From Chromatiaceae bacterium (GTDB taxonomy: Bacteria; Pseudomonadota; Gammaproteobacteria; Chromatiales; Chromatiaceae), in contig JALOTB010000024.1 in NCBI GenBank assembly GCA_025458165.1, forward strand, positions 811-64,810: a stretch of 64,000 bases of DNA. The letters are read 5' to 3'. The notes under the pieces were generated by a model. That model worked only from the letters and a program-made list of their open reading frames with translations, was not told where the DNA came from and searched no databases. This document shows, in pieces, positions 1,281 through 34,013 of this stretch (position 1 is the first letter of the stretch; each line of letters begins with the position of its first letter). A program made the translations under genes and the position numbers.

Positions 1281-1637
1281 ATGGCAGAGCGGACGGAGGG
1301 CGAATCGGCCTCTGGCGACGGCGCCGAGTCGGCGCGGCCCGGGCAAGATGCCGCCCACCCTGAGATCGCCCGTCTCGCCGCTGAGGTGCTGCGCTATCTG
1401 CGGCGCCATCCGGGCGCCGCGGACACCGTCGAGGGAATCGCCGAATGGTGGATCGCCAAGCAACGGCTGGAGGATACCCCGGGGCGCGTGCAGGCGGCCG
1501 TGGATCGACTGGTCGCGCAAGGCCTGGTGGAGTCGACCGGTGGCGCCGCCGGGCGCCTGCGCTACCGGCTACGCGATGCCCCCTCGGGCGAGGCCGCGGC
1601 GGCGGCCGACCGCCACCAGACGGGGGCGGGTGACTGA
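1281..1637 (+). CDS. hypothetical small protein, first gene of the CIS operon (possible winged-helix fold)
   Basis: 118-aa ORF with coding-like composition. It ends 3 nt before the next start. No family was recognised. Confidence 0.5.
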   Translation: MAERTEGESASGDGAESARPGQDAAHPEIARLAAEVLRYLRRHPGAADTVEGIAEWWIAKQRLEDTPGRVQAAVDRLVAQGLVESTGGAAGRLRYRLRDAPSGEAAAAADRHQTGAGD

Positions 1638-1640
1638 TCC

Positions 1641-2258
1641 ATGGCCTCTTACCTCGGTGTGCGGGGGGCACTGCGGGCGCTCGAGAGGCACCTCCAGCAC
1701 CGGCTGCCGGCCGGCTGGCGCGCCGACGCGCTCGAGCCGACGATGAACCCGCCCCCGCGCGTGGAGCTGCTCGGTAGCAGCGCCCTGGCAGGCTCGCTGT
1801 CCGGCAACCTGCTCGGACTCTACCCGTACCGGTTGGTCGTCGATGCCCACGGGCGCAACCGACCCCTCACGGTGCCGGGACCGAATGGGGTGATCACACA
1901 CGCCGAGCTGCCAGTCAACCTGCAGCTACTCGTCATCGCCAACGGCACCAGCGCCCAGTATGAGCTGGATCTGCTGGCCTGGGCGATGATCGAGCTCGCC
2001 AACCACAGCCAGCTCGATGCGGCCGACCTCGACGAGGGGGACCCGCACTGGGGTCGCCAGGAGGCCCTCGCAATCCAGCCCACGGATCTCAGCAACGAAG
2101 ACCTGATGCGGCTCTGGGATCAGTTCGAGGCGGACTACACGCTGGCGGTCCCCTACGAGATCCGTACCGTCCGACTGCGGCTGGCGCCCGAGGACAGCGA
2201 GGGGCCGGCTGTCGGCACCCGGGCCTTCCCGCTCGGGACCCTGGAGGAGCACCGATGA
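1641..2258 (+). CDS. DUF4255 / Pvc16-Afp16-like tail terminator (cap) protein
   Basis: 205 aa. The N-terminal pattern (LERHLQHRLP ... LSGNLLGLYPYRLVVD ... LPVNLQLLVIANG ... ELDLLAWAM) resembles the DUF4255 family found in eCIS loci. Its position in the operon fits. Confidence 0.65.
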   Translation: MASYLGVRGALRALERHLQHRLPAGWRADALEPTMNPPPRVELLGSSALAGSLSGNLLGLYPYRLVVDAHGRNRPLTVPGPNGVITHAELPVNLQLLVIANGTSAQYELDLLAWAMIELANHSQLDAADLDEGDPHWGRQEALAIQPTDLSNEDLMRLWDQFEADYTLAVPYEIRTVRLRLAPEDSEGPAVGTRAFPLGTLEEHR

Positions 2259-3142
2259 GGCCGATGCGCGTCGGCGAAACCCTGGTGCTCCATGCGGCCG
2301 ACCTATTGCGCTGGCGCGACGGCACCTCGGCCGCGGACCCCAACGACGCCACCGCGATGCGGCTGCTCAACTGGCCGGTGCGAGTCGCCTTCGACGCCCC
2401 CCCCGCGGACCTCGCCTGGCTGCATAAGCCGGGACAAACGGCCCTCTGGCGGCGCCCGACGCAGGACATCGTGCACGGGCTCGCGACCGATGCCGACCGC
2501 CAGCGCCCAGGGCCGACGCCGTTCGCGCTTCAGGGTACGGTGGTCGACGCGACCGGGGCCTTCCAGCCGCGCCGCTTCTCGCTCATGGCCGGCAGTGCCC
2601 AAGGGCACGACCTGGTGCTCTACCCGAGCACACAGGGCACGCGCTTCGGCAGCGGGGGCGGTCTCACCGGCTCGCTGCGCTTCGACCTGCTCGCTCAGCA
2701 CCTGCCCGACCCCGACGCCGAGCCAACGCCTGAGCCGTTCCTGCTCGATCCCAGGCGGCCGGCGGCCTGGGCGCTGATCGAGGTCGCGGTGACCGTCGGC
2801 GATGGCGACCTGAGGCGCTTCCGCGCCCAGGCCGGCCCGCTCGGCGACTTTCGGCTCTCGCTTTGGCGTCTGCCGCCGCTGCCGGCCGGCACCGCGGCCT
2901 ATGCCGCCGAGCTGAGCGTGCGAGCGGCACTGACTGCGCTCGATCGCGCCCCGCTCGATCCGACCGCGCTGGCCGAGATGTCGGTCGCCAGTTTGCCGCC
3001 AGCGCCGGACCCGACCGCCGCCCCGCCAACGCTCCCGGCCGACGCCTTCGGGCCGACGCTCGCGTTGAGCCTGGTCCCCGGCGCGGTACAGCGGGTACCG
3101 ACCGCCGCACCCCATCGGCTCGCCCTGAGGCCGGCCCCATGA
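2255..3142 (+). CDS. hypothetical protein (CIS-associated)
   Basis: 295-aa ORF whose start overlaps the upstream stop (ATGA). No family was recognised. Confidence 0.5.
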   Translation: MRPMRVGETLVLHAADLLRWRDGTSAADPNDATAMRLLNWPVRVAFDAPPADLAWLHKPGQTALWRRPTQDIVHGLATDADRQRPGPTPFALQGTVVDATGAFQPRRFSLMAGSAQGHDLVLYPSTQGTRFGSGGGLTGSLRFDLLAQHLPDPDAEPTPEPFLLDPRRPAAWALIEVAVTVGDGDLRRFRAQAGPLGDFRLSLWRLPPLPAGTAAYAAELSVRAALTALDRAPLDPTALAEMSVASLPPAPDPTAAPPTLPADAFGPTLALSLVPGAVQRVPTAAPHRLALRPAP

Positions 3143-3189: not shown

Positions 3190-5406
3190 ATGCCCGAGTA
3201 TCTCGCCCCTGGCGTATTCGTCGAGGAAGTCAGCTTTCGCGCCAAGTCCATCGAGGGGGTCGGCACCAGCGTCGCCGGCATCGTCGGCCCCACCCGTACC
3301 GGTCCCCTGCGCGGCAAGCCGGAGGTGGTGACCAGCTTCGCCCGCTTCACCCAGGTCTACGGGGACGCCGCCGACCTGACCCTCGGCGGCACGGCGGTGC
3401 TCAACCATACCGCGATCGCCGCGCGGGCCTTCTTTGACAACGGCGGCAAACAGCTCTTCGTCGTGCGGGTGGCGCGCCACGTCAACGACACCGATGCCGC
3501 GGGCGCCGTCAACGCGCCAGGGGCAGCGACCTTCGCCAGCCGAGCGGACGCCAGCAACCATGTCGCCTTCCGCGCCCGCTTCCCCGGAACCGCCGGCAAC
3601 TACTGGTTGGAGGTGCTCTGGCGTGCCAGTGCCAACCTGCTTGCCACGGAATACCCGGCGAGCCTCGCCGACGGCGAGACGGCCTTTCTGAACGCGACCG
3701 GGCTGCCCATCGCGGTGCGCGATCCGGCGCTCGGCGATGCCGATGTGCCCGACGCGAGCTTCCCGCTGTCGATCCAGGCCCTGGTCACCCGCGAGGGCGA
3801 CCGCTACCGCATCGTCGGCAACCGCGCGGTGATCGCCGCCGCCGACGGCACCGTTGCCGCGGCGGACCTCGCCCCGGCGGCGGGCGAGGAAGGGGCGTTG
3901 ATGGCCGCCGCGGTCGTCAATGGGCCGTCGATACAGGTCAGCTTCACCCGGGTGCGCGCTCGCGCGCCGGCGAGTGGACCGCTCGTGGACGGGGTCGCGG
4001 CGGAGCTGCGTCTGTCGCGAGAGACCGATCTGTCGAGGCACACCGGCGCCGCGCACTGGGGCCGTCTGCGTGTGCTGCGCGGCACGCTGAACGGGGCTGG
4101 CGATCTCTTCACCGTCAGCCCCGGGGGCGTCAACAGCGGGGTCGCGGCGCCGATAGCGGTGCCCCTGTCGCTGCTGGCCGCGGCACCCCCGGGTACCGCC
4201 GTCGTGCTGCCGCGGGAGGACTTCGACCTCGACGTGCGCACCCGCTCGGTGAGTGGAGGTCCCGGGGAGGTCGTCTGGTCGGTCGGTAGCCTCAGCACCA
4301 CGGCCAGCGGCGAGCGCAGCCTCGCGGCCCTGCTGCCCGCGGTCCCGGCGCGGCGCGAGGCGCAACTGATCAATCCCGTCAGTTGCACCATTGGCGCCGC
4401 GGCCACCACGCGAGCCCAGGTGCTCGCCGCCCTCGACAGCCTGTTCGAGACCACCTGGCTCGATCCCACCCGCGTCGATGGTCCCCGATATCTGATCGAG
4501 CTGCGGGCGGGTAGCGATGGCGCCCCACCGGTGGCCGCCGACTACGCCGGCGAGACCGACATCACGCAGGGCAGCACCGGTCTCGCCGCGCTGGAGGACA
4601 TCGAGGACGTCAGCATCCTCATGACCCCGGCGGCCGCGGCGGATGCGGACAACCATCAAGGGATCGTGCAGGCGATGTGGGCCCACTGCCGGCGGATGCG
4701 CTACCGGGTCGGTATCGTCGACTCGCGCGAAGGCATGTCGCTGTCGGAGGTGCGCGAGTGGGCCGGGCAGTTCCCGGACAACCGCCTCGCGCTCTATTAC
4801 CCCTGGATCGTCACCTCCGACCCGACCGGCGCGCGCAACAGCATCAGCGTACCGCCGGCTGGGTTTATCGCCGGGATCTATGCCAACACCGATGTGACCC
4901 GCGGCGTGCACAAGGCCCCGGCCAATGAGCCGATCATCGGCGCGCTACGCCTGGCGCAGGACATCAACCGCTTCCAGCAGGAGCTGCTCAACCCCAACGG
5001 CGTCAACTGCCTGCGCAGCTTCCCCGGCGGCGGCCATCGGGTCTGGGGCGGGCGCACGCTCGATGTGCGCGACCCGGAATGGAAGTACGTCAACGTCCGG
5101 CGCTATTTCCTCTACCTGGAGCGCTCCATCGACAGGTCCACGCAATGGGTGGTGTTCGAGCCCAACGGCGAGCGCCTGTGGGCCAACGTGCGCTCGGCGG
5201 TCGAGGACTTCCTCTACAACGAGTGGTTCAACGGCCGTCTGCTCGGCGGCTCACCGAAGGCGGCCTATTTCGTCCGCTGCGACCGCAGCACCATGACCCA
5301 GAACGATCTCGACAACGGCCGCCTGGTGTGCCTGGTCGGCGTCGCGCCGCTCACGCCCGCCGAGTTCGTGATCTTCCGCATCGGCCAGAAGACCGCCGAC
5401 GGTTGA
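3190..5406 (+). CDS. contractile tail sheath protein (Afp2-4/Pvc2-4-like)
   Basis: The N-terminus MPEYLAPGVFVEEVSFRAKSIEGVGTSVAGIVG is a classic sheath start. FFDNGGKQLFVVRV and the C-terminal GVNCLRSFPGGGHRVWGGRTL are also present. AAGGAGG lies 7 nt upstream of the ATG at 3190; an alternative GTG is at 3187. Confidence 0.92.
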   Translation: MPEYLAPGVFVEEVSFRAKSIEGVGTSVAGIVGPTRTGPLRGKPEVVTSFARFTQVYGDAADLTLGGTAVLNHTAIAARAFFDNGGKQLFVVRVARHVNDTDAAGAVNAPGAATFASRADASNHVAFRARFPGTAGNYWLEVLWRASANLLATEYPASLADGETAFLNATGLPIAVRDPALGDADVPDASFPLSIQALVTREGDRYRIVGNRAVIAAADGTVAAADLAPAAGEEGALMAAAVVNGPSIQVSFTRVRARAPASGPLVDGVAAELRLSRETDLSRHTGAAHWGRLRVLRGTLNGAGDLFTVSPGGVNSGVAAPIAVPLSLLAAAPPGTAVVLPREDFDLDVRTRSVSGGPGEVVWSVGSLSTTASGERSLAALLPAVPARREAQLINPVSCTIGAAATTRAQVLAALDSLFETTWLDPTRVDGPRYLIELRAGSDGAPPVAADYAGETDITQGSTGLAALEDIEDVSILMTPAAAADADNHQGIVQAMWAHCRRMRYRVGIVDSREGMSLSEVREWAGQFPDNRLALYYPWIVTSDPTGARNSISVPPAGFIAGIYANTDVTRGVHKAPANEPIIGALRLAQDINRFQQELLNPNGVNCLRSFPGGGHRVWGGRTLDVRDPEWKYVNVRRYFLYLERSIDRSTQWVVFEPNGERLWANVRSAVEDFLYNEWFNGRLLGGSPKAAYFVRCDRSTMTQNDLDNGRLVCLVGVAPLTPAEFVIFRIGQKTADG

Positions 5407-5558: not shown

Positions 5559-6020
5559 ATGCCCGAGCTCAGAGAGACGCCCTACGGGGCATTCAATTAC
5601 CTCGTCAATCTCGGCGACGGCTCTGAGGGGGCCGTCATCGGGGGCTTCTCGGAGGTCTCCGGCCTGAACGCCGAGGTCACTGTCGCCGAGTACCGCAACG
5701 GAAACTCCCCCGTGAACTACGTCACCAAGGTGCCCGGTATCCACAAGGCCGGCGACGTCACGCTCAAGCGCGGCGTAATCGGGGCCCAGAACCTCTACGA
5801 CTGGCTCGAGCTTGCCCGTGCCGGGGACCTGAGCGCCAAGCGCAATGTCGAGGTCAAGCTCAAGAGCGAAAACGCGAGCAGTCAGTCCGCCGTGGTCACC
5901 TGGAAGCTGTTCAACGCGATGCCGATCAAATGGACCGGCCCGACACTGACCGCCAAGGGCGGCAGCGATGTCGCCATGGAGGAGCTGGTGCTCGCGGTCG
6001 AGTACATCGAGCAGTCCTGA
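5559..6020 (+). CDS. tail tube protein (T4 gp19-like / Afp1-Pvc1-like)
   Basis: 153 aa. PYGAFNYLVNLG ... FSEVSGLNAEVTVAEYRNG ... KVPGIHKAGDVTLKRGV ... LYDW is typical of the conserved phage tail tube family. Confidence 0.9.
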   Translation: MPELRETPYGAFNYLVNLGDGSEGAVIGGFSEVSGLNAEVTVAEYRNGNSPVNYVTKVPGIHKAGDVTLKRGVIGAQNLYDWLELARAGDLSAKRNVEVKLKSENASSQSAVVTWKLFNAMPIKWTGPTLTAKGGSDVAMEELVLAVEYIEQS

Positions 6021-6075: not shown

Positions 6076-7752
6076 ATGGCCATCGAGGGGGAATTGATGG
6101 CCGGGCGCGTGACGCTGACGCCGCGTCCAACGCGGCGGCGCGAGCCGGTGCTGGTCGCGGCCATGCTCGGGCACCTACCCGGGCGCGTGCGCCTAGAGCG
6201 GCTGCGCCCGGCGGCCCGCGCACTGATGCGCGAGGTCGGGCTCGGCGAGGTCGTCGACCAGCTCGAGCCCCTGGCCCAGCCGCGTCTCTCGCCCGCCGAG
6301 CTCGATCGCATCCGCGCCCTGGCCCACGTCCCGGTTCCACTCGCGGCGAGCGCCGAGCTCGACGACATCTTCCCGGACGCCCGCGACGACCGTCAGCCGA
6401 CCGGCCATCGCAGCCTGCTCGCCGGTACCCGCGCCTGGCTGCCGCAGGCGGTCGACGACTTCTTCGTCAACGGTGGCGAGCGGCTGTGGATCCTGCGCGT
6501 CCCCAGTGACGAGGGGCGCGCCGGCTTCCTGCCGCAAACCGCGGCGGGTCTCGCGAGCGCCCTGGCCGCGGCCCCGGCCCGCGACCCTGGGGCCACCACG
6601 CGTTGTGACGAGCTCGGGCCGACAGCCGCGCTCGACCTGACGCGCCCGCTCGACCTGCGCGGACTGGCCGCCGTCCTGCCGATCCCCGAGGTCGGCCTGA
6701 TCGCCGCGCCAGACCTCGAGCGCCTCCTGATCCCCGCGCGGCTACCCGACATCGCTCGGGTCCGAGTCGAGAATGCGGCGCCCCGCTTCGTGCCCTGCGG
6801 CACGTCGCTCGACGATGACCACCGTGAGCGGCGTCGCGACAGCGAGATGCCGGCGCGCGTCGCCGATCAGCCCGACGCCAACGAGCCCGCCTGCTCGCTC
6901 GCCGTCATCGGCCGCATCGCGGCGACGCTCGCGGCCTGGCGCCCCGATTGCCAATATCTGCACACCCTGCCGCTCGCTTACTCCGCGGCGGCCGGCCAGC
7001 CGGCGCTGCATCCCGCCGTCACGTCCGGACTCGCGGCCGTGCGCGGGGGACGCGCCGGCGCACCGCTCAAGCGCGTGCAGTTGCTCTGGCCCTATCTGCG
7101 CGGCCCACGCTTCGCGCTCGCGAGCCCGGTCGGCGTCATCGCCGGGCGTACCGCCGCGGTGGCGCGCGCCGAGGGCCCGTGGCGCTCGGTCGCGGGGCGG
7201 GCCCTCAGCACCGATGCGGCACCCTGGCCGCCGGTCGGTCTACGCACGGTCGAGGCGCTGTGGGCATCGCCCGGGGTCGGCGTCCTGGTACAGCGACGCG
7301 GGCGTGTGGAGCTCGAGGACGAGCGCCTCGCGGTACCGGCGCTGCACGCCGACGACTGGGCGCCGGCCTGGGGCGACGCCGGCGATATCCGCCGCTACGA
7401 CGGTTACCGCGCCGGCGAGGTGGTGCGCTTCATCGGGTTCCTGCTGCGCCGCCTGCGTGCGCTCGGCGAGCGGTTGGTGTTCGACCTCGACGCCCGCGAC
7501 CCGCGTCCGCGCCTGCTCCTGGATGACCTGTGCCGCGGCCTGCACGCCGCCGGGGCGCTGCGCGGTGCGCTGCCGGAGGAGGGCTATCGGCTGCGCGAGG
7601 GGGTCGCCGCCCCGGGGGTGATCGCCTGGGACATCGAGCTGGCACCGGCCTTCCCGATCGACCGGCTGCGACTCAGCTTCGTCAACCGCGACGGCGAATG
7701 GCAGGCGGGTCTGTTGCAGGAGCGGGTCGGCTCGGGGGTGTTGAATGGCTGA
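6076..7752 (+). CDS. divergent tail-sheath-like paralog
   Basis: The sheath-like motif DDFFVNGGERLWILRV parallels FFDNGGKQLFVVRV in the main sheath. The ATG at 6076 was chosen after the tube gene stop. The rest of the protein is strongly diverged. Confidence 0.55.
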   Translation: MAIEGELMAGRVTLTPRPTRRREPVLVAAMLGHLPGRVRLERLRPAARALMREVGLGEVVDQLEPLAQPRLSPAELDRIRALAHVPVPLAASAELDDIFPDARDDRQPTGHRSLLAGTRAWLPQAVDDFFVNGGERLWILRVPSDEGRAGFLPQTAAGLASALAAAPARDPGATTRCDELGPTAALDLTRPLDLRGLAAVLPIPEVGLIAAPDLERLLIPARLPDIARVRVENAAPRFVPCGTSLDDDHRERRRDSEMPARVADQPDANEPACSLAVIGRIAATLAAWRPDCQYLHTLPLAYSAAAGQPALHPAVTSGLAAVRGGRAGAPLKRVQLLWPYLRGPRFALASPVGVIAGRTAAVARAEGPWRSVAGRALSTDAAPWPPVGLRTVEALWASPGVGVLVQRRGRVELEDERLAVPALHADDWAPAWGDAGDIRRYDGYRAGEVVRFIGFLLRRLRALGERLVFDLDARDPRPRLLLDDLCRGLHAAGALRGALPEEGYRLREGVAAPGVIAWDIELAPAFPIDRLRLSFVNRDGEWQAGLLQERVGSGVLNG

Positions 7753-8272
7753 TCTGTTCATCCCGTTCCGCTTCCTGGTGACCCTGTATTCGGCTGACAA
7801 GGCCGACGGTGCGACCGCGGCCGACACGCCGGAGGCGCGACGCGAGGAGACCGGCGAGGTCCTCTGCGGTGGGCAGTTCAGCGAGGTCACGGGGCTGGAG
7901 GTGACGATGACCCCCAAGACCATCACCGAGGGCGGCCGCAACTGGGGGGCGTTGCAGCGCAGCGGACCGACCAGCTTCAGCGCGGTCACGCTAAAGCGCG
8001 GCCTGACCACCATCAATGACCTCTGGGCCTGGTTTGACGTGACCACCCGCGGGGCCAACTACGGCTATCGGCTGCGCGGCGAGATCACCATGCTCGGCAA
8101 TCCGCAGGGCGGGCCCGGCAGCGCACCGGTGCCGGTGCTGACCTGGAGGCTCAGCAATGTGCTCCCAGTCAAGTTCAAGGGACCGGACCTGTCGGCCACC
8201 GCGAACCAGGTCGCCATCGAGGAGCTGCAGTTGGTCCATGAGGGCCTCGAACTGATCCGCCCGGGGGCCTGA
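7745..8272 (+). CDS. tail tube protein paralog (Afp5/Pvc5-like)
   Basis: 175 aa. FRFLVTLY ... GGQFSEVTGLEVTMTPKTITEGG ... SGPTSFSAVTLKRGLTTINDLWAWF matches the gp19-like tube family. It overlaps the upstream stop by 8 nt. Confidence 0.85.
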   Translation: MADLFIPFRFLVTLYSADKADGATAADTPEARREETGEVLCGGQFSEVTGLEVTMTPKTITEGGRNWGALQRSGPTSFSAVTLKRGLTTINDLWAWFDVTTRGANYGYRLRGEITMLGNPQGGPGSAPVPVLTWRLSNVLPVKFKGPDLSATANQVAIEELQLVHEGLELIRPGA

Positions 8273-8273: not shown

Positions 8274-9164
8274 ATGACCGAGCCGACGCGTGCCAAGCTG
8301 TTTCCGGTCGAGGGACCGGCCGATCGGGGCGACCCGGCAAACGCGATCGACGTGCAGTTCAACCCGATGACACTGAAGGTGGCCTTGTCCAATTCGCTGA
8401 AGGCGAGTGAGGGCTCGGAGAACGGCAGTGCCGCGCAATTCGTCGACAAGAGCACCTCCACGCTGACCGTCGAGCTCCTGTTCGACACCAGCATCGAGGA
8501 CAGCGACGTGCGCCTGAAGACCAAGGCGATCGCCGAGGCCTTCATGAAGCCGGTCGAGTCCGGCGACCAGCAATTGGCCCCCAAGCGCTGCCTGTTCCAA
8601 TGGGGCGCCTTCGAGTTTGTCGGCATGATGGCGAGCTACGACGAGACGCTGGACTTCTTCTCGCCTGAGGGCACGCCGCTGCGCGCCACGCTCGCGATCA
8701 AGCTCAACGAGGACCGCTACCAATTCCGCCAATCGGCGGCCCGCAAATCCGCCCGCGAGACACCGACCTTCGGCGGGGCCGCGGCCGACAGCGCACCGGC
8801 GGCGAACAAAGGCGCCGGTCGGGACGAGCGGGCCTGGCGCGACACGGCCTTGTACAACGGCCAGGAGAGCCCGCGCCAGTCGGCGCCCGGCGGCCTCGCG
8901 GTTCCCGGCCTGACCGCGACCGCCGCGGTGGGCATGCAGGCCGAGGTCGGCCTAGGCGTCGGCGGTGGACCCACGGCGGCACCCAAGCCCGACATCGCCG
9001 CGCCGGGCTTCAGCTACGGGGCCTCGGCAACGCTTGGCACCATGATCCCTGGCGCCTTCTCTCCGGGGGCCGTGTCAAGCATCGGGCCGCCGCCGGCGGG
9101 GACCGGCTCGCCGGTCGCCGGCGGGGCCGGCGCCCGCGCCCGCACCAGCGTGGGGTTCGACTGA
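8274..9164 (+). CDS. CIS tube-initiator-like protein (Afp7-like N-terminal domain) with a Gly/Ala/Pro-rich tail
   Basis: The N-terminal ~150 aa (IDVQFNPMTLKV ... LTVELLFDT ... CLFQWGAFEFVGMMASYDETLDFFSPEGTPLRATLAIKL) resembles the tube-fold domain of eCIS/T6SS-like initiator proteins. No LysM motif was recognised in the C-terminal half. Confidence 0.6.
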   Translation: MTEPTRAKLFPVEGPADRGDPANAIDVQFNPMTLKVALSNSLKASEGSENGSAAQFVDKSTSTLTVELLFDTSIEDSDVRLKTKAIAEAFMKPVESGDQQLAPKRCLFQWGAFEFVGMMASYDETLDFFSPEGTPLRATLAIKLNEDRYQFRQSAARKSARETPTFGGAAADSAPAANKGAGRDERAWRDTALYNGQESPRQSAPGGLAVPGLTATAAVGMQAEVGLGVGGGPTAAPKPDIAAPGFSYGASATLGTMIPGAFSPGAVSSIGPPPAGTGSPVAGGAGARARTSVGFD

Positions 9165-9355
9165 TGCCGCTCCTGATCGACGAGCTCGAGCTGACCCTCG
9201 TCGACGAGGCGGCGGACGCGCCGGGCGGCGCGGGCGACGGCACCGCGCGCACGGCCCCCGGCGCGACCCTGACCCCGCTCGAAGGGGATGAGGTCGCGCT
9301 CGCCGCGATCCTCGACCTCATCCGTGAGCGCCGCGCGCGGCTGCGGGTGGACTAA
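9164..9355 (+). CDS. small hypothetical protein (Afp6-position ORF)
   Basis: 63-aa ORF with an ATGA start/stop overlap with the upstream gene. Its position is equivalent to the small ORFs found in Afp/PVC loci. Confidence 0.4.
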   Translation: MPLLIDELELTLVDEAADAPGGAGDGTARTAPGATLTPLEGDEVALAAILDLIRERRARLRVD

Positions 9356-10403: not shown

Positions 10404-10407
10404 GGCC

Positions 10408-26751: not shown

Positions 26752-28757
26752 GCCCGCCCCGCCAGCCGCCCGGAACCCGCGCCTGGGTCGCGGCCCTGGT
26801 GCACCACGGGGTCGCCGCCTTTGCGGCCGACACCCTCGGCGCCGACGACCCGCTCCTCGCCGCCCTGCGCGCAGAGACCCTGATCCACGGCGCCGCCGCC
26901 CTGCCCGGCGACTGGCCGGACCTGATCGAGGCGCTGGCAGCGGCCTGGCCGCTGACCGAGGGCCGGCTGGGGGCACTGCTCGCCGACTACCAACTGACGC
27001 CGGCCGAGCTCTTCGTCCTCGGCCTGGCCGGCACGGTGGAAGAGTCCCACCTGCTCGGGTTGGTGCTGGCGCGCCTCCAGGCACCGGCGGCACAGTCGCG
27101 TCCGACCCTTCACCTGACCCTAGCCCTGACCGCTGCCCTGTTCGGCCCCGAGGCCCGCTCCCTGCAGGGGCTACTGGCGCACCCGTTGCTGCGCGTCGGA
27201 GCGCTGCGGGTGGACGGCGACGGCCCGCTCCCGCTCGCGACGCTGGGCGTGCCACCCCCGCTCTGGGCGGTGTTGAGCGGGACCGCAACACCCTGGCCCG
27301 GCTGCGCACCCATCCTGAGGCCGGTCCCGGGGCTGCTACCGCGGGCGCTCGATCGCGAGCTGCCGAAGCTTGCGGCGTTGCTCGGAGGGAGCGATGCAGA
27401 CACGGCGACCGAGTGCGCCGGGCTGGTCCTGCGCGGCACCCCCGGCAGCGGGCGCGCGGCCGTCGCCGCGCTGCTCGCCGCGCGCCTGGGGCGCGTCGCT
27501 CTGGCGGTGCCGGTCGCCCTTTGGGAGCAGGAGCCCGCCCTCGCCGTCGCCTGCCGTTACGCCGGCTGGCTGCCGGTGCTGCGCCCGACGCTGCGCCCCG
27601 GCGAGCTCTGGCCGCTACCGGGACAAGCCGCGGCGGCACCCTCCGTCGTCGTCCTGGTGGGTATGGACGGCGCGGTGGGGGGGGCCGGGCTGGTGGAGCT
27701 CGACCTGCCGCCGCTGCCCGAGCCCGAGCGCCGCATCCTCTGGCAGGCGCGCCTCGGCGACCCCGAGCTGGCCGCCGTCGCCGCCCACGCCCTGCTCGCC
27801 GGTCCGGTGATCGAGGCCCTCGCCGGCCGCGCGCGGCTACTCGCGGCACGAGCCGGGCGGACGGTGTCGCTTGGGGATGTCGCCGATGCCCGTGCCCTGC
27901 TTGGCGCCGAACGGCTGCGATTGCTGGCGCAGCCGGTCGCGCGGCGGGTCGGCGCCGACGCCCTGGTGCTGCCGCCAGGGCTGACCGCGGACCTCGACGT
28001 GGTACTGCGCCGCTGCCGCCGCCGCGAGGCGCTCTGGCGGGGCCTGGGCGCGACACTCACGGCCACTGCGAGCCCAGGCGTGCGCGTGCTGTTGGTCGGC
28101 GAAAGCGGCACCGGCAAGACGCTCGCGGCGAGCTATCTCGCCACCGCGCTCGGCGCGCCCCTGTACCGGGTGGACCTGGCCGCGGTGATGAACAAGTACA
28201 TCGGCGAGTCCGAGAAGAACCTGGGCGCGCTATTGGACGAGGCCGCCGCGCACGACGTGGTGCTCCTGTTCGACGAGGCCGACTCCCTGTTCGGGCGACG
28301 CTCGGAGCGCAAGGAGACCGGCGAGCGCTACGCCAACATGCTGACCAACTTCCTCCTGACCCGCATCGAGAACCACCCCGGCCTGGTGGTGCTGACCAGC
28401 AACAGCCGCGAGCGCATCGACCCCGCCTTCAACCGCCGATTGGATCTGATCCTGGAGGTGCCACTGCCGGGCTTCGAGGAGCGCCGGCGCCTCTGGGCCA
28501 GCCACCTCGGCACCCGCGCCCCGGCAGAGACGCTCTGCCGGACGCTGGCCGCCCACTGCGAGCTCGCGGGCGGGGCGATCCGCAACATCGTACTCACCGC
28601 GGCCACGCTCACCGCGGCCGACGATGGCCCGCTGGACACCGCCGCACTGCTCATGGCGCTGCGGCTGGAGTACCGCAAGGCCGGTCGAGCGCCGCCGGCC
28701 GCGCTCGAGCGCCTGGCCACGGCGAGTGACGCCCCGCCGGGCAGGACCCCCGAATGA
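26748..28757 (+). CDS. AAA+ ATPase (Afp15/Pvc15-like)
   Basis: Walker A is VLLVGESGTGKTLAASYLA. YIGESEKNL is present. Walker B is VVLLFDEADSLFGRRS. LLTRIENHPGLVVLTSN and a sensor region follow. The start is at the ATGA overlap with the upstream gene. Confidence 0.88.
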   Translation: MSPPRQPPGTRAWVAALVHHGVAAFAADTLGADDPLLAALRAETLIHGAAALPGDWPDLIEALAAAWPLTEGRLGALLADYQLTPAELFVLGLAGTVEESHLLGLVLARLQAPAAQSRPTLHLTLALTAALFGPEARSLQGLLAHPLLRVGALRVDGDGPLPLATLGVPPPLWAVLSGTATPWPGCAPILRPVPGLLPRALDRELPKLAALLGGSDADTATECAGLVLRGTPGSGRAAVAALLAARLGRVALAVPVALWEQEPALAVACRYAGWLPVLRPTLRPGELWPLPGQAAAAPSVVVLVGMDGAVGGAGLVELDLPPLPEPERRILWQARLGDPELAAVAAHALLAGPVIEALAGRARLLAARAGRTVSLGDVADARALLGAERLRLLAQPVARRVGADALVLPPGLTADLDVVLRRCRRREALWRGLGATLTATASPGVRVLLVGESGTGKTLAASYLATALGAPLYRVDLAAVMNKYIGESEKNLGALLDEAAAHDVVLLFDEADSLFGRRSERKETGERYANMLTNFLLTRIENHPGLVVLTSNSRERIDPAFNRRLDLILEVPLPGFEERRRLWASHLGTRAPAETLCRTLAAHCELAGGAIRNIVLTAATLTAADDGPLDTAALLMALRLEYRKAGRAPPAALERLATASDAPPGRTPE

Positions 28758-31700
28758 GCCAGGCCGCCGCAATCAGCGTCAGCTCCCAGCCGGCGGCGGG
28801 CAAGGCGCGCGCGGCCCCTGCGCCCCCGGCGGCCGCCCCGATTGCCCCGGCCGTGCTGGCGGTACCGGCCTATCTCCAGGCCCGCTTCAAGACGCAGGCG
28901 CTGGTCCAACGCGCCCCGGCCGCCGAGCCCACAACGGTCGAGGACGAGGAGGTCCTGCCGGCCGGACCTGGGCTGCAGACCAAGATCGCGATCGGCCCGC
29001 CCGATGACCCCTATGAGCAGGCGGCGGATGCGCTCGCCGATCGGGTGCAGCGCGCCGCCGCCCCGGCGCCGGCGGTCCAGCGGGCGCCGCTGCCGGACGA
29101 GGCGTCATTGCCCATCCGGCGGATGGCACGGCCGGACGAGGACGAGCCCTTGCCGGTGCAACGGAAGGCTGGCGCACCCTGCCCGACCTGCGCGGCGGCC
29201 GGGGATCGTCTGCAGGCGAAGCCGGCTGGCAACGGCCCCGGGCCGGCAGCCACCGCGCCCGGACCGCAGGCCGGTCGCGCGCTGCACCGGGCGCTCGCGC
29301 AACCCGGCCCGGGTGCGCCCCTCTCCCCAACGGTGCGCGGGCGGGTCGAGCCGGCGCTCGGGGCTGACCTTGGCGCGGTTCGGGTCCACGCCGACGCCGG
29401 CGCCGCCGCCACCCGCGCGATTCAGGCACGCGCCTTCACCCATGGCCAGGACATCTGGCTCGGCGCCGGCGAGAGCCCGAACGACCTCGGCCTGATGGCC
29501 CACGAGGCGACCCACGTCGTCCAGCAGACCGGGCGGGTCCAGCGCAAGCCAGCCAACAACGGCGCCGCTGGCGGCGCCCCGGCGCGGGCCGGTGGTGCCG
29601 GTGCTGCGGGTGGTGCCGGTGGCGCGGCTGGCGCTGCCGCGGGTGTCAACGCCCAGACGGGTGGAGGCACGGGCGCCGGCGGCGGTGCGACCGCTGCCCA
29701 GCCGGCTTCGGCTGCCGGTGCTGTTACTCCAGCCGGCGCGGGCCTGGCAGCTCCTGCGGCCGGGGGGGCTGGCACCGGCCCGACGCTGTTGATGCCAGAA
29801 CCGCCGGCGGGGCTTTCGGCGGAAGAACAGGCGCGCATCGCCGAGGCCCAGGGCCAGGCCTCGGCGGCCGCCGAGGCCAATGCGGCGATGCCGCCGGCCG
29901 ATGCGGCGGTGGCCGATGCGCGAGCCGCGGTCGACGAGCCCGAGGCCGAGACCGCGGCCCGCGCGGCCGGTGAGCTCACCGCGACCCTCGGCGAGCGCGC
30001 CGCGCCCAGCCCCGAGATCGAGGAGCTTTGCGAGCGCATCAAAGGCGCCATCCGACGCCGCCGCCCGCCAGACGAAGACGCACTGGCCCAGTTCGACCCA
30101 GGCGAGGCGACCCAGGCCGCGGGTGCCGAGCTCAACAGTGCCGTCGAGGGCGACGCCGAGCGTGTCCAGGGCGACTACGACCAGTTAAACGAGACGCCAG
30201 AGGGCAGCCCCGAGCAGCAGGCGCAGCCCTTGGAGACCCCACCGGGGGCCGTCGAGACCCGGCCCGTCGAGGCAAGCCAGGCCGTTCCCGACGCGGTGCC
30301 GGCCGCAGACCTCTCGCTCGATGCCGATGTCGCCGCGAGCAGCCAACGCATCGAAGACGCCGGCATGGCCACCGCGCCCGCGGAGCTGATCACCGACCCG
30401 TCCAACCCCGTCACCCAGGCCCGCGAGGGGCAGACCGGGCTGGCCGAGGCGGCCGCGCGTGACCCGGTCGAGGTAATGGCCGAGCAGACCGCGATCCGCG
30501 ATCAGGCCCAGGGCGCCATGCGCACACTGCAGCAGCAGGCCCTGAACGCACTGCAGGCGTCGCGCGCGGCGACTGCGAGCGGGGTCGGCAGCGGCATGGT
30601 GAGCCTGGGTGACACCGAGGAGCAGATGCGCGCCAACGCGGGCGCCGAGGCCCAGCGCATCTTCAGCGAGGCGCAGACCCAGGTCAGCAGCCTCCTCGAT
30701 CCGCTGCCGCAGACCGCGATGCAACGCTGGGAGACCGGCATCCGCGTCCTCTCCACCCGGGTCGAGCAGGAGTCCGAGGAATTCAACCGGTGGAAGGCCG
30801 AGCGCTATTCGGGCGTCGGCGGCGCCGTCCTTGGCGTCGTCGAAGGCGTCGTCGGCATGCCCGACTGGGCCATCCGCTGGCTCAACGGCATCGAGGAGCG
30901 CTTCGGCAACGATGTCTGCGATCTGGTCCGCGAGATCTCCTCGGAGGTCAACACGGTCGTCGCGACCTGCGAAGAGATCATCGACAACGCCAACCGGCAG
31001 ATCGCAGCGGTCTTCGCGCAACTCCCGACCAGCCTCCAGGATTGGGCCGCCGGCGAGCAGGCCAACTTCAGCGCGCAACTGGAGGGGTTGCGCGAACGGG
31101 CCCACAACACCCGCAACGACTTCAATCAGCAGCTCTCCCAACAGGCCGCCCAGGCCGTTCAAGAGGTGCGTGAGCGCATCCACGCGATGCGCGAGGAAGC
31201 CCAGGGGCTGCTCGGGCAGATCGCCAATGCCATCGAGCGCTTCGCCGAGGACCCGGCCAAGTTCATCATCGAGGGGCTGCTCAAGCTCGTCGGGATCGCC
31301 GCATCGGCCTTCTGGGCCTTGGTCAACCGCATCGGTCAGGTCATCGAGGACATCGCCGATGACCCGATGAACTTCGCCAACAACCTGGTGCGGGCCATCG
31401 GCCAGGGCTTCCAGCGCTTCTTCGACAACTTCGCCAACCACATTGTCAGCGGTTTCTTCGACTGGCTGTTCTCGGGCCTGGGCTCGGTCGGCGTGCAATT
31501 GCCGACCGACTTCTCCCTCGGCAGCTTGATCACCTTCTTCCTGCAATTGATGGGGATCACCTGGGCGCGGATTCGCCAGATCCTTGCACGACACATCGGC
31601 GAGCAGAATGTCGCCCTATTGGAGAAGGCCTATGAGCTGATCGCCCTGCTGATGGAGCGCGGGGTCGATGGCATTTACGAGATGATCCGCGAGCAGTTGA

Positions 31701-32971
31701 ATCCGCAGACCATCCTGGATGCGATCCTGAGCGCGGCGGTGGACTTCCTGATCGACGCGCTGATCCGTGCCGTCACGCCGCGGATCATCGGGCTGTTCAA
31801 CCCGGCCGGCGCGATCATCCAGGCGATTGAGGTCATCTACCGCGTCCTGGCCTGGATCTTCAACAACGCCGCACGCATCTTTAGTCTGGTCGAGACCGTC
31901 GTCAACGGCGCGGCAGACCTGATCGCCGGCAACGTCGGCGGCATGGCCACCGCCATCGAGGGCGCGCTGGCACGGCTCATCGCCCCGGTGATCGACTTCC
32001 TCGCCGGCTTCCTCGGCCTCGGCAACCTCCCGGATCGCATCGCCGACACCATCCGCGGCTTCCAGCAAATGGTCCTCGCCGCAATCGAGCGGGTGGTCGC
32101 CTTCCTGGCCGAGCGGGCAAGGGCGTTGTTGCGGACGTTAGGGATTGGTGGCGGCGGGGAAGACGACACTGAGGACGAGCTCGAAGGCGTCCAGGCTTTG
32201 GCGAGCAGTGCAGTCCGAAGCCGGCTAGCCGCTGGTGCTGACGAAGCGGAGGCGCGTGGCATCCTGCGGCAGATCGAGAATGACCTTCGCCCGAACGGCC
32301 TGAAAAGTCTGGAGCTGGGCACAGCGGATGCCCACGGCAACATACCCATCTTCGCTGAGGCGAGCCCCAAGAAGCTCGTCAACAAGCTCGTTGACAAGAA
32401 CGTGACCGTCGCTCTGCACGCGACCATTACGATGCATGAAGAAGAAGACCTCATTCCCGCTGGTATAGCCAACGAGGGCGAGTCGCTGAGCTTCCGCTTC
32501 AGTGAACTAGCGGCCGGTGGTCGTCGACTCGGTGACGATCCGAGCGCTACAGAGCGCCGACAGATATTTCACGGTCTTGGCGGCACAGGCCGGGAAACGC
32601 CGCTTCCGGCGGTCTCGCAGCAGGCGCGCGGTCGGGGATGGCAGCCGTCTGCTGGGCTTATTCTGGAACCGCGCCCAGGGGCTCCATTGACCGTGTTGTC
32701 GTGGAATACCAGTCAGCCCAAGGGGAGCGATAATGTATCCCACGCGGAGACCCAGTTTTTGGAATGGTTCGATCACCGCCCGCTGGCCTGGCGTAGGAGA
32801 GTTAGCCGCGTGCAGGTCGTTGTTGAGGGGCGACCGATTTGCGACCGTTGTCTGGGCTTTCTACAGGCTTCAAAGGCAAGATTTCTTAGTCTTCCGACCC
32901 CACCGTCACGGTCATTCGATTGGCGGGGACCGTCATCTGAGGAAGGCGACGACAAAGTTTTGGAGCGATGA
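28754..32971 (+). CDS. DUF4157 (HExxH) domain-containing polymorphic toxin or effector with a C-terminal deaminase-like module
   Basis: The N-terminus is of DUF4157 type (LQTKIAIGPPDDPYEQAADALADRV ... VRVHADAGAAATRAIQARAFTHGQDIWLGAG ... MAHEATHVVQQ; HEATH at nt 29501-15). A Gly/Ala linker and a conserved helical middle region follow. The C-terminus carries HAE (32741-49) and PICDRC (32834-51). The start overlaps the ATPase stop (ATGA). Confidence 0.85.
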   Translation: MSQAAAISVSSQPAAGKARAAPAPPAAAPIAPAVLAVPAYLQARFKTQALVQRAPAAEPTTVEDEEVLPAGPGLQTKIAIGPPDDPYEQAADALADRVQRAAAPAPAVQRAPLPDEASLPIRRMARPDEDEPLPVQRKAGAPCPTCAAAGDRLQAKPAGNGPGPAATAPGPQAGRALHRALAQPGPGAPLSPTVRGRVEPALGADLGAVRVHADAGAAATRAIQARAFTHGQDIWLGAGESPNDLGLMAHEATHVVQQTGRVQRKPANNGAAGGAPARAGGAGAAGGAGGAAGAAAGVNAQTGGGTGAGGGATAAQPASAAGAVTPAGAGLAAPAAGGAGTGPTLLMPEPPAGLSAEEQARIAEAQGQASAAAEANAAMPPADAAVADARAAVDEPEAETAARAAGELTATLGERAAPSPEIEELCERIKGAIRRRRPPDEDALAQFDPGEATQAAGAELNSAVEGDAERVQGDYDQLNETPEGSPEQQAQPLETPPGAVETRPVEASQAVPDAVPAADLSLDADVAASSQRIEDAGMATAPAELITDPSNPVTQAREGQTGLAEAAARDPVEVMAEQTAIRDQAQGAMRTLQQQALNALQASRAATASGVGSGMVSLGDTEEQMRANAGAEAQRIFSEAQTQVSSLLDPLPQTAMQRWETGIRVLSTRVEQESEEFNRWKAERYSGVGGAVLGVVEGVVGMPDWAIRWLNGIEERFGNDVCDLVREISSEVNTVVATCEEIIDNANRQIAAVFAQLPTSLQDWAAGEQANFSAQLEGLRERAHNTRNDFNQQLSQQAAQAVQEVRERIHAMREEAQGLLGQIANAIERFAEDPAKFIIEGLLKLVGIAASAFWALVNRIGQVIEDIADDPMNFANNLVRAIGQGFQRFFDNFANHIVSGFFDWLFSGLGSVGVQLPTDFSLGSLITFFLQLMGITWARIRQILARHIGEQNVALLEKAYELIALLMERGVDGIYEMIREQLNPQTILDAILSAAVDFLIDALIRAVTPRIIGLFNPAGAIIQAIEVIYRVLAWIFNNAARIFSLVETVVNGAADLIAGNVGGMATAIEGALARLIAPVIDFLAGFLGLGNLPDRIADTIRGFQQMVLAAIERVVAFLAERARALLRTLGIGGGGEDDTEDELEGVQALASSAVRSRLAAGADEAEARGILRQIENDLRPNGLKSLELGTADAHGNIPIFAEASPKKLVNKLVDKNVTVALHATITMHEEEDLIPAGIANEGESLSFRFSELAAGGRRLGDDPSATERRQIFHGLGGTGRETPLPAVSQQARGRGWQPSAGLILEPRPGAPLTVLSWNTSQPKGSDNVSHAETQFLEWFDHRPLAWRRRVSRVQVVVEGRPICDRCLGFLQASKARFLSLPTPPSRSFDWRGPSSEEGDDKVLER

Positions 32972-32978
32972 TTGACAA

Positions 32979-34013
32979 ATGAACAAATCCGGTATGCCTC
33001 CGTCTACATTGTGGTCGGACGAGCATCGCAAGCGCCTGTTTCTGATCCCGGAAGGCATTGAGTTACCTATCGGCGAGCTACGCTTGCGAACATCGGGAGG
33101 CCGTGACCGGTGGGTGCAACCTTCCACCGTTGCGCCTTACCAGGTTAGTGCAGACGTCGCATGCGCCTGGGCGCAGGCCGAGTTATCGAGCGTATCTCGC
33201 CAACTCGGCGGCAACCCGCGCCGCTCGTTCCCATCGGTACCGGCGCCCGAGCAGCCGGGGAATGCCTCAGCGGACGCCCCGGCGACCCCCGGCCTCGACC
33301 TCCTCGCCGCAATCACCGGCACCCCGCGGGCTGACCTGGACACCGGTGCGCTCGGCGCGGCACTGAAGCGCTATTTCGGTGACATCGGAGGCACCATCGC
33401 CGATGCCGTGAGCGGCGAGCCAGCGCGCATCGCGAGGGCCAAGGTGCGGATGGCCGAGTGGTCCGCGATTCTGCGTGCGCATGGCACGGAGGTCGGGGAG
33501 GCTGCGCCGGCGGGGACCCCATCGGGGCGAGTACCGACGAGCGAACCGGGGGCGCCCGAGCCGGCGGCGGGGGGCACGGCCACAGAGTCCGACTCGGGGC
33601 GGCCAGTCGGCGAAGTGGGCGGGTTGGCCGAGCGCCTGCATGCGCTGGCCGAGGACTTCCGGCGCCGCGCTGATGCGCTGGCCGCCGCACGCGAGACCCG
33701 CCCAGGCGCCGCCGCGACACCGGAGACCCGGTGCGCCGACAAATCCAGCGCCTCGGGAGTCGGTCAGCCGGCGGCCGCCGTCAGACTCGATCGGGCCGCC
33801 ACCGAGGCGCAAGCAACCGGTGAGCCATCCGAGGCGAGTGGGACAACGGGGTCGGCCGATGGTCCTGCGGCGACGGGCCAGCCGGAGTCTCCCTCCCACG
33901 GCTATACCCAGGCGGCCGCACTCGAGGCCCTGGCCGAGGGGCTCGAAGACGCGGCAACCGATGCCGCGGCCCGTCTGCGCGCGTATGCGGAAACACTCCG
34001 AGATCGCTCGTGA
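32979..34013 (+). CDS. hypothetical protein; candidate immunity or partner protein of the upstream toxin module
   Basis: 344-aa ORF starting 8 nt after the toxin stop. The first ~150 nt are markedly lower in GC. The rest of the protein is Ala/Pro/Glu/Gly-rich. No family was recognised. Confidence 0.45.
   Translation: MNKSGMPPSTLWSDEHRKRLFLIPEGIELPIGELRLRTSGGRDRWVQPSTVAPYQVSADVACAWAQAELSSVSRQLGGNPRRSFPSVPAPEQPGNASADAPATPGLDLLAAITGTPRADLDTGALGAALKRYFGDIGGTIADAVSGEPARIARAKVRMAEWSAILRAHGTEVGEAAPAGTPSGRVPTSEPGAPEPAAGGTATESDSGRPVGEVGGLAERLHALAEDFRRRADALAAARETRPGAAATPETRCADKSSASGVGQPAAAVRLDRAATEAQATGEPSEASGTTGSADGPAATGQPESPSHGYTQAAALEALAEGLEDAATDAAARLRAYAETLRDRS

Follow-up and report, generated by a model that had tools for sequence, protein, structure and literature searches.

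A putative subtype-IIb-like contractile injection system in a Chromatiaceae genome, with a membrane-helix protein in the PAAR position and a predicted deaminase toxin

Extracellular contractile injection systems (eCIS) have been divided by gene content into six subtypes (Chen et al. 2019; PMC6899500). Subtype IIb stands apart as the sole one without Afp10/PAAR and the sole lineage II subtype that keeps Afp6, and it combines a single Afp11 with a spike split into gp27 and gp5 open reading frames (ORFs) and with divergent Afp12 and Afp13; throughout lineage II, Afp14 cannot be recognised, and each subtype carries two or three conserved genes without a known function (PMC6899500). A literature search found no IIb system that had been experimentally characterised, imaged or tested. 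Here, we analysed a stretch of 64,000 nucleotides (the window) from contig JALOTB010000024.1 of a purple sulfur bacterium of the Chromatiaceae (assembly GCA_025458165.1), in which an island at positions 1281-34013 very probably represents a chromosomal operon for a subtype-IIb-like contractile injection system (CIS) of lineage II. Judged from its genes, the island is a complete CIS of the eCIS superfamily, with sheath, tube, baseplate, spike, Cis16, Cis15 and DUF4157 and with no head genes. The lineage to which it belongs is catalogued yet uncharacterised by experiment, and the value of the island lies in this as well as in two components, a protein that replaces PAAR and a rare toxin tip.

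Among solved systems, CIS-Sc of Streptomyces coelicolor (8BKY, 8BL4, 9GTP; subtype IId) provides the closest sheath (1.5e-100) and the closest Cis11 (3.4e-53). Like the island, CIS-Sc has two tube paralogues, Cis7, gp25, Cis11, Cis12, Cis15 and Cis16, has neither an Afp13-type fibre nor Afp14, and encodes a dedicated membrane protein. It differs in its single fused VgrG (the spike is split in the window), its one sheath gene, the lack of a Cis19-like trio, and its host, a Gram-positive actinomycete. Its membrane protein, CisA, with a periplasmic domain and a gene that follows those of the baseplate, has no relation to the membrane-helix protein encoded at 11089 in the window. The Anabaena tCIS (7B5H), which falls in the subtype Ia/Ib pair of clades and has a Cis11 with cage domains, is much more distant in sheath (2e-42) and Cis11 (5e-7), while the N-terminal anchor of its Cis19 is homologous to the N termini of the 18275, 19236 and 21044 products (2.4e-7). 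It is an example of a CIS tethered through the transmembrane helix of a structural protein, although that helix is in Cis13 and not in a spike-adjacent protein. Afp and PVC (subtype Ia) share with the window the sheath, gp19 tube, gp25, Baseplate_J, gpI-like protein, AAA+ ATPase and Pvc16_N cap, as well as toxins at the 3' end. Unlike the window, they have PAAR, an Afp7 bearing LysM, a fused VgrG, an adenovirus-like Afp13 fibre, an Afp14 tape measure and three recognisable sheath genes, in an order that opens with tube and sheath and closes with the cap.

The window shows the gene-content traits of IIb, namely a split spike, a single Cis11, no PAAR and divergent homologues of Afp12 and Afp13. 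With the IIb systems of dbeCIS it also has in common the lack of a recognisable Afp14, two or three lineage-specific genes, a small ORF at the Afp6 position and a proteobacterial host. What the window copy has beyond these traits is a sigma-54 activator paired with a winged-helix (wHTH) protein, and a toxin end found in none of 52 loci. A first-pass annotation, made from the sequence alone, had called the parts list non-canonical; the parts are as it listed them, whereas their novelty did not hold, the list being the published IIb signature (PMC6899500). The core machine is encoded by the following genes:

1641-2258, + strand: Cis16/Afp16-type cap (tail terminator); Pfam Pvc16_N 5.2e-29
3190-5406, + strand: main contractile sheath, Cis2; Pfam Phage_sheath_1 5e-20, Phage_sheath_1C 1e-13
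5559-6020, + strand: inner tube protein, Cis1a-like; Pfam Phage_T4_gp19 6.8e-32
7745-8272, + strand: second tube-family protein, Cis1b/Cis5-like adaptor; Pfam Phage_T4_gp19 5.1e-25
8274-9164, + strand: tube initiator, Cis7/Afp7-like; Pfam CIS_tube 1.5e-21, residues 7-149
9360-10403, + strand: gp27-like hub, N-terminal half of a split VgrG/Afp8; Pfam Phage_GPD 1.8e-12, NCBIfam VgrG_rel 2.9e-26
10408-11082, + strand: gp5/gpV-like spike, C-terminal half of the split VgrG/Afp8; Pfam Phage_base_V 1.4e-15
13103-13501, + strand: gp25-like baseplate wedge or sheath initiator, Cis9; Pfam GPW_gp25 7.8e-23
13530-15749, + strand: baseplate wedge Cis11 (gp6/Baseplate_J); Pfam Baseplate_J 3.8e-4 (weak)
15749-18256, + strand: baseplate wedge Cis12 (gp7/gpI-like); Pfam Tail_P2_I 5.8e-9, NCBIfam CIS12_fam 7e-21, below its cut-off
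26748-28757, + strand: AAA+ ATPase Cis15/Afp15; Pfam AAA 4.3e-27, residues 447-573

The Pfam, NCBIfam and profile searches thus bear out the cap, sheaths, tubes, initiator, gpD hub, gpV spike, gp25, Baseplate-J, gpI-like, ATPase and DUF4157 assignments of the first-pass annotation. They also agree with it that no PAAR tip and no LysM domain can be recognised, as Pfam finds neither in any island product; for PAAR, there was no Pfam match in any product at E <= 0.01 and no gap that would fit a separate gene. Against solved structures, the main sheath matched the Streptomyces CIS (8BKY/8BL4) at 1.5e-100 and the haloarchaeal 9EZM at 7e-92, the Afp, PVC, tCIS and AlgoCIS sheaths at 1e-40 to 1e-49, and T4 gp18 at 4e-9. 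The identity of Cis11, for which the direct Pfam match is weak, is secured because its family profile (A2) matches the solved Streptomyces Cis11 (9GTP) at 3.4e-53; the same profile reaches tCIS at 5e-7 and AlgoCIS at 3e-6, and 13530-15749 is the only match in the island, indicating a single copy. Hub and spike halves form a single fused ORF in the actinobacterial relatives L027 and L040 (related loci are cited by L numbers). The cap gene opens the Thioalkalivibrio paradoxus locus as well.

The tube initiator has an N-terminal tube fold followed by a low-complexity tail ending in VGFD, in which Pfam found no match, LysM included. In the window (8724-9164) and in relatives L007-L024 this tail is rich in Ser, Ala and Gly and very variable in length (proteins of 231-430 amino acids [aa]), with a conserved GVGF(D/E) end in most relatives. 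We expected LysM in the tube initiators of Actinobacteria and Chloroflexi, and the L026 example had none in Pfam at E <= 0.01; the contrast was not established.

The conservation scan, with one genome per species, returned 80 loci, about 18 of which have the full gene order in common: the sheath is followed by a tube gene, the divergent sheath, the other tube gene, the initiator, hub and spike, the membrane protein, gp25, Cis11 and Cis12, three anchor proteins and a 600-aa protein. The genomes with the full order belong to Gammaproteobacteria, Desulfobacterota, a Holophagaceae metagenome-assembled genome (MAG), Hyphomicrobiales and Roseateles, and the whole order recurs in Thiohalocapsa, T. 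paradoxus, Methylomonas, Thalassolituus and dozens of metagenome contigs. Synteny in related genomes, which the first-pass annotation had proposed as a check, is therefore kept across several phyla. The other loci are mostly from Actinomycetota, Chloroflexota and Dormibacterota, with Cis11 at ca. 28% identity and without the lineage-specific genes; the two examined among them (L027 and L040) have a fused VgrG. For Cis11, 794 homologues were detected, with identities of 79% in Thiohalocapsa sp. ML1, 57% in T. paradoxus, 56% in Cellvibrio japonicus and 52-54% in Methylomonas, Halomonas and Marinobacterium. The proposed host, a sulfur-oxidising proteobacterium, fits the Thiohalocapsa relative and an identical Cis11 protein deposited as 'MAG: Chromatiaceae bacterium'. 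In a metagenome scan that started from the ATPase, the 3' half of the locus, with Cis12, the anchor trio, the 600-aa protein, the ATPase and one or two DUF4157 proteins, was equally conserved. Among environmental Proteobacteria the gene set is widespread and occurs in sulfur oxidisers, methanotrophs and marine heterotrophs.

Between the two tube genes, with a start moved from the original 5968, lies a gene whose product was recognised through its family:

6076-7752, + strand: highly divergent sheath paralogue, 558 aa; family profile

The protein itself had no match in Pfam, NCBIfam or PHROGs, and BLASTP against the main sheath was not significant. A profile of 13 orthologues (A3) matched the tCIS sheath at 3e-14 and also Pvc2/3/4, Afp2/3/4 and AlgoCIS, and hhalign of this family against the main-sheath family gave 90.8% probability over the C-terminal core. 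Other loci are informative about this slot: in L054, a more distant locus, it is occupied by a normal second sheath, L023 (Roseateles) has an intermediate form, and in L066 a second sheath copy stands upstream of both tube genes. On these grounds, the 6076 product is a very divergent sheath paralogue by family profile, the only route by which the two sheaths of the first-pass annotation were recovered, and it probably forms a specialised sheath layer.

Downstream of Cis12, three consecutive genes code for proteins with related N termini:

18275-19195, + strand: first anchored protein, 306 aa; NCBIfam CIS13_fam at the N terminus, 1.9e-8
19236-21017, + strand: second anchored protein, 593 aa; NCBIfam CIS13_fam at the N terminus, 2.4e-10
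21044-24808, + strand: third anchored protein, 1,254 aa, largely helical; NCBIfam CIS13_fam at the N terminus, 0.012, and member of profile A8

Their first 80-110 residues are paralogous by alignment. A joint profile of 38 such N termini (A8) matched chain AA of tCIS 7B5H (All3314, residues 14-86) at 2.4e-7 and, weakly, the AlgoCIS chain 9WT0. All3314 is Cis19, which forms the baseplate 'crown' of tCIS (PMC8894136), and the Cis19-type N-domain was classed with the eCIS baseplate anchor domains eBAP3/4 in a 2026 catalogue (PMC12923769). The C-terminal parts of the trio gave no match in the searches; the 21044 product is 28-54% identical to its relatives and no transmembrane segment was found in it. 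The earlier reading, in which no Afp13-like fibre was recognised, was therefore wrong in substance: the three genes bear a Cis19/Cis13-type baseplate-anchor N-domain, and the island, by homology, does encode fibre- or crown-type proteins, three in number.

By homology to solved CIS structures, a baseplate made of gp25, Cis11, Cis12, the split gp27-like hub and gp5-like spike, and the Cis7-like and Cis1b-like adaptors would nucleate a tube of gp19-family subunits. Around it would form a contractile sheath of the main protein, with the divergent paralogue as a probable special layer; a Cis16 hexamer would seal the far end and the three Cis19-type proteins would decorate the baseplate edge. The AAA+ ATPase and the 600-aa partner coupled to it may act in assembly or cargo loading. 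Contraction of the sheath would push tube and spike into the target and deliver the DUF4157-headed toxin of 1,405 aa, whose zinc deaminase tip is predicted to mutate or damage nucleic acid of the recipient, and the 11089 product, in the place of the PAAR tip gene, would most probably couple the spike or baseplate to a membrane. Contraction and injection is the best-supported reading, and one that we hold with considerable confidence. Gene identities, synteny, lineage traits and the toxin family were observed directly, whereas assembly roles, toxin activity, regulation and the place of firing are inferred. On the site of firing, extracellular or membrane anchored, the evidence is mixed, and much of it concerns the 11089 gene:

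11089-13005, + strand: orphan-fold protein, 638 aa, C-terminal transmembrane helix at ca. 600-624; hydropathy and AlphaFold model

The gene starts 6 nt after the spike gene. Its product had no match in Pfam, NCBIfam, PHROGs or PDB sequences. A hydrophobic stretch at residues 589-634 reaches a Kyte-Doolittle value of 2.98, and the tail, strongly hydrophobic and highly conserved, reads GIQWICSFSLPVITLVAMILLMIMISLLNIVFFWLPWVRICLPFPK. In the AlphaFold model, built from 42 sequences and of good quality (pLDDT 77), the N-terminal body is mixed alpha/beta and residues 600-624 form a helix; no structural neighbour was found in fold searches of PDB or BFVD. An exhaustive profile search placed the family in 1,417 clusters at 50% identity; wherever the context is visible, homologues lie between the gp5-like spike and gp25, and the family is missing from loci of actinobacterial type with one exception in Chloroflexaceae. 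Identities as PAAR, tape measure, CisA-like or Cis13-like protein were considered and rejected, with no relative in the PDB sequence search or in the PDB and BFVD fold searches. The window copy carries a Pro/Ala-rich insertion of ca. 65 residues, predicted to be disordered (residues ca. 118-188, window 11440-11650), which is absent from 12 aligned orthologues. Directly before this gene, the gp5-like spike (10408-11082) has a near-invariant end, ...VVGTSYTPGAGNIW, across the lineage, and VVGTSYTPGAGNIW could be the docking site for the 11089 protein.

Tentatively, the 11089 protein may be a new kind of membrane coupler, in which case subtype-IIb systems in Proteobacteria would be cell-bound injectors anchored in the inner membrane. 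If true, they would represent an independently evolved mode in Gram-negatives, like that of type VI secretion systems (T6SS) or of tCIS, and not released eCIS particles.

A broader idea is quite possible, if short of probable: the particle would assemble in the cytoplasm, the C-terminal helix of the 11089 product would hold it at the inner membrane, and it would fire from inside the cell. Firing could be outward and contact dependent, as in the T6SS, or, under stress, directed at the cell's own membrane as in Streptomyces and Anabaena. The nearest solved sheaths belong to the cytoplasmic Streptomyces CIS (1.5e-100) and to the membrane-bound haloarchaeal one (7e-92), and the nearest solved Cis11 is that of Streptomyces (3e-53); there is, however, no solved subtype-IIb structure, and 'nearest solved' may reflect sampling. 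The gene for the tail-anchored membrane protein, whose family has 1,417 clusters, belongs to the fixed core of the lineage, with a constant place between spike and gp25 wherever the context is visible, and the three characterised non-extracellular CIS each use a dedicated membrane protein or helix (CisA, Hbor_38620 and Cis13), although the 11089 protein is unrelated to all three in sequence and fold. No lysis cassette for particle release was found in the island; the Afp and PVC loci are not known to hold lysis genes either. Typical of released eCIS are the three large proteins of fibre or crown type and the DUF4157 toxin, and no trans-envelope complex is encoded, though a Gram-negative envelope must be crossed.

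Another explanation for the same protein, which we consider rather unlikely, is that it serves not as an anchor in the producer cell but as a translocator or effector associated with the spike: it would sit on or around the gp5-like tip in place of PAAR, and its hydrophobic C terminus would enter the target membrane and let the toxin through. Analogues of such a role are phage ejection proteins and those prePAAR effectors of the T6SS that have transmembrane domains. The position of the gene, 6 nt after the spike, where PAAR sits in other lineages, and the lack of PAAR in lineage IIb agree with it, as do the large N-terminal domain, well folded in the model, with its short hydrophobic tail, and the hydrophobic helices that the toxin scaffold also has. 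The product has, on the other hand, no PAAR-like or known spike-binding fold, no chaperone gene is evident that could shield the transmembrane helix, 638 aa per copy is large for a tip cap, and the precedent comes from the T6SS. The cleaned parts list, with its hidden second sheath, three Cis19-type proteins, universal membrane-helix protein in the PAAR slot and conserved ATPase partner, offers concrete targets for deciding between release and firing from a membrane.

Returning to the injection machine, its putative cargo is encoded at the 3' end of the island:

28754-32971, + strand: cargo/toxin, 1,405 aa; Pfam eCIS_core/DUF4157 2.8e-20, residues 189-260
ca. 32279-32968, + strand: predicted C-terminal AID/APOBEC-like deaminase domain of the toxin; homologues and motif
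32979-34013, + strand: low-complexity protein, 344 aa; GC3 (third-position GC content) 0.75

From the N terminus, the toxin consists of DUF4157 (HExxH, here a HEATH motif), low-complexity sequence, a long helical and partly hydrophobic scaffold, and the C-terminal tip. Over residues 345-1133 the scaffold shares 78% identity with its closest relative (L088), and similarity ends there; the last 270 residues are shared by none of the 52 related loci, and the C-terminal domain has a GC3 of 0.62 compared with ca. 0.88 in the structural genes. By sequence, the protein behaves as a polymorphic toxin with an exchangeable tip. DUF4157 was found downstream of the ATPase in 29 of the 52 related loci.

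Only three homologues of the tip were found among 5.8 billion proteins. In all four sequences SHAExQFxEW, followed 30 residues later by P(I)CxxC, is invariant; in the window these are SHAE and, after 30 aa, PICDRC, with the His, the Glu and both Cys unchanged in the four. The AID/APOBEC-like deaminases (APOBEC_N, SNAD4, NAD1) share this HAE...PCxxC zinc motif (H[AV]E, with a spacing of about 25-30 residues), from which the window tip differs in its PICxxC and a one-residue insertion; P0186 has the same variant, and the two other homologues have the canonical SPCxxC. The latter, P0187 and P0188, matched the eukaryote-centred AID/APOBEC families of Pfam, with APOBEC_N (1.2e-8), SNAD4 (3e-7), NAD1 and APOBEC2/3, and they are 30-33% identical to the window tip (E of 3e-12 and 1e-8). 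A phmmer search of PDB with the window tip gave only noise. A structure model of the tip (pLDDT 58) has the predicted order strand-strand-helix(HAE)-strand-helix(PCxxC)-strand, which agrees with the beta-alpha-beta-alpha-beta core of deaminases, although Foldseek gave no significant match. We regard the assignment as a putative deaminase as strong for the family and moderate for the window copy. By architecture, the toxin can be likened to EAT11 of Amycolatopsis, a tested eCIS-associated toxin with an N-terminal DUF4157, a long linker and a C-terminal deaminase (PMC8213781). Carried on a DUF4157 scaffold, the window tip would be a rare AID/APOBEC-like deaminase from a bacterium; such domains bear on the origin of the eukaryotic editing deaminases and are of interest as parts for base editors.

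The 32979 product had no family match in Pfam, NCBIfam or PHROGs. It has a homologue in L088 (42% identical) that comes after a HEAT-repeat gene and a toxin with another end, and it is therefore not clearly a cognate immunity protein; an immunity or accessory role is possible. Many related loci have a large DUF4157 protein that ends in DDVEFEVPDIDT...GLIxRI, with a protein of ca. 320 aa after it (L093 15542-16501, L096 17809-18777, L116 15422-16393 and L123 15444-16412); of these followers that of L093 alone was scanned against Pfam, and it proved to be a TPR protein. Where these relatives have the DDVEFEVPDIDT ending and the TPR gene, the window has the predicted deaminase tip and the gene for the 344-aa protein. 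L096 has an extra DUF4157-OmpA protein. HEAT-repeat genes lie directly after toxins with other C termini in two close relatives, L088 (16467-17600) and L134 (17251-17805), where they plausibly encode immunity proteins; the window has no HEAT-repeat gene.

Three further proteins are conserved in the lineage:

2255-3142, + strand: lineage-conserved protein, 295 aa, translationally coupled to the cap gene; synteny
9164-9355, + strand: 63-aa ORF; public gene calls, GC3 0.94
24949-26751, + strand: conserved protein, 600 aa, translationally coupled to the ATPase; synteny

The 2255 product, without a match in Pfam, NCBIfam or PHROGs and without a solved relative in a PDB profile search, has homologues in the same slot in L168, L022, L013, L016 and L024. 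The 63-aa ORF had no family match; its motif MP(I/L)LIDE...RLRVD is conserved in L007, L009 and L012, T. paradoxus has a 53-aa counterpart, and by position it is a candidate Cis6/Afp6-like 'plug'. The centre of the 24949 product is Pro/Ala-rich and variable, and its C-terminal motif, RLAGLDxNPGWVPWLGRVVxFHY, is invariant; of the 42 metagenome loci with room for it, 30 have a homologue immediately upstream of the ATPase. No Pfam or PDB match was obtained for it, including with a 20-sequence profile and a member-by-member Pfam scan. A role as tape measure was suggested by position only and is weakened by the Pro/Ala-rich, non-helical centre; the protein is taken here as a putative partner of the ATPase. 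Seven ORFs had been listed as impossible to name, and five of them (1281, 11089, 18275, 19236 and 21044) are now assigned, while 2255 and 24949 are still without a family match.

Upstream of the cap gene, the following features may act in regulation:

2-853, + strand: sigma-54 enhancer-binding activator, 3' part; Pfam Sigma54_activat 2.7e-42, AAA_lid_14, HTH_8
1229-1244, + strand: candidate sigma-54 -24/-12 element, TGGCACGAATACTGTA; pattern search, 2 mismatches
1281-1637, + strand: small winged-helix MarR-like protein, 118 aa; Pfam MarR_2 1.5e-5, below its curated cut-off

The activator gene crosses the window edge and is 464 aa at full length in the source contig (L001). Homologues of the 1281 product (E of 5e-10 and 8e-9) follow a sigma-54 activator in L147 and L156, so that the pair stands upstream of two CIS loci that are far more remote and differently ordered (L147 1782-3153 and L156 268-1763). 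The candidate TGGCACGAATACTGTA lies 37 nt before the first island gene. Across the window, the sigma-54 pattern matched 12 times against 20 expected, without enrichment over chance, and L147 and L156 have better GG-N10-GC elements at the same place, just before the small wHTH gene; the site at 1229 is suggestive only by its position and by these counterparts. The activator and the winged-helix protein probably control expression of the island; sigma-54 control, as a local feature with a predicted promoter, is reasonable but unproven.

Several points count against the overall interpretation as a IIb-like system with a deaminase toxin and sigma-54 control. IIb membership rests on gene-content traits and not on placement in the dbeCIS tree, no tape-measure protein was identified in the island, and the roles of the 2255, 9164, 11089, 24949 and 32979 genes are unproven. 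The window toxin tip had no Pfam deaminase match even at E <= 5-10, and its model, of poor quality, gave no significant Foldseek match; the deaminase call is therefore transitive, through two homologues and the invariant motif. At -12 the candidate promoter element has GT in place of GC, and neither the activator nor the wHTH gene is present in the T. paradoxus locus.

A defective prophage or R-type tailocin is a very improbable source of these genes, even though the tails of P2- and T4-like myophages also have homologues of the sheath, tube, gpD, gpV, gp25, J and I proteins. A scan of all island genes and 13 larger downstream ORFs turned up no product from a capsid, portal, terminase, integrase, replication or lysis family; tape-measure, tail-chaperone, fibre and assembly-chaperone families were likewise not detected, and there is no tRNA attachment site, the window having no tRNA gene and no Rfam match. 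Present instead are Pvc16_N, the AAA+ ATPase and DUF4157, marks of eCIS that are absent from phages and tailocins (PMC8213781, PMC12210884). The sheath is 90 orders of magnitude nearer to CIS than to T4 gp18, and the head-less gene order is kept across phyla. The 5.7 kb upstream in the source contig (L001) hold SCO1/MauG-like, SBP56 and response-regulator genes besides the sigma-54 activator, with no phage head, lysis or integrase genes. The first-pass exclusion of a prophage thus extends to these flanks, in which, as in the scanned products, head, packaging and integrase families were not found. A canonical T6SS has practically no claim, for the contractile sheath, tube, spike, gp25 (TssE-like), AAA+ ATPase and VgrG-related hub that would suit it come with a phage-type sheath and no TssB/C sheath, TssJLM, TssK/F/G or ClpV family in any product (Pfam, NCBIfam), and with Baseplate_J, the Cis16 cap and DUF4157, which are absent from T6SS i-iii (PMC6899500).

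Filtering of the ORFs by third-position GC resolved 1281-34013 into one run of co-directional genes on the + strand, with a GC3 of 0.82-0.94 in the structural genes. The first-pass annotation had about 25 packed ORFs; their shared direction and tight packing hold, whereas the count is 22 genes, the 63-aa ORF at 9164-9355 included. The overlaps that it had read at 2255, 7745, 9164, 15749, 26748 and 28754 are all present at the junctions: ATGA at 2255, 26748 and 28754, a one-base TGATG overlap at 9164 and 15749, and an overlap of 8 bases at 7745. The remaining intergenic gaps in the island are 1-152 nt, with a maximum of 152 nt. An exact-sequence look-up of the tube protein retrieved the same locus on several metagenome-assembled contigs, whose public gene calls add the 63-aa ORF and supplied corrected starts for the divergent sheath (6076), hub (9360), spike (10408), gp25 (13103) and Cis11 (13530). 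GC content is 0.67-0.78 in the island and 0.64-0.72 downstream, and at such high values raw ORF lists are crowded with spurious antisense frames. Long antisense ORFs of 633-854 aa opposite island genes, some with high GC3 (9802-12342, 20129-22693 and 15383-17284, all on the - strand), look like by-products of the 75% GC content, not genes, and were set aside.

The genes downstream of the island are cellular; among them are those for an Aas-like acyltransferase/ligase, CopD, a response regulator, a molybdopterin oxidoreductase with 4Fe-4S and NrfD-like partners, MetA, efflux and ABC proteins and a GGDEF-EAL protein. A 669-aa ORF at 42844-44853 had no Pfam match. At 44723-50093 on the - strand, the molybdopterin oxidoreductase (969 aa), its 4Fe-4S subunit and a DmsC/NrfD-like membrane anchor form a set that resembles a polysulfide, thiosulfate or tetrathionate reductase, which would fit a sulfur-metabolising host.

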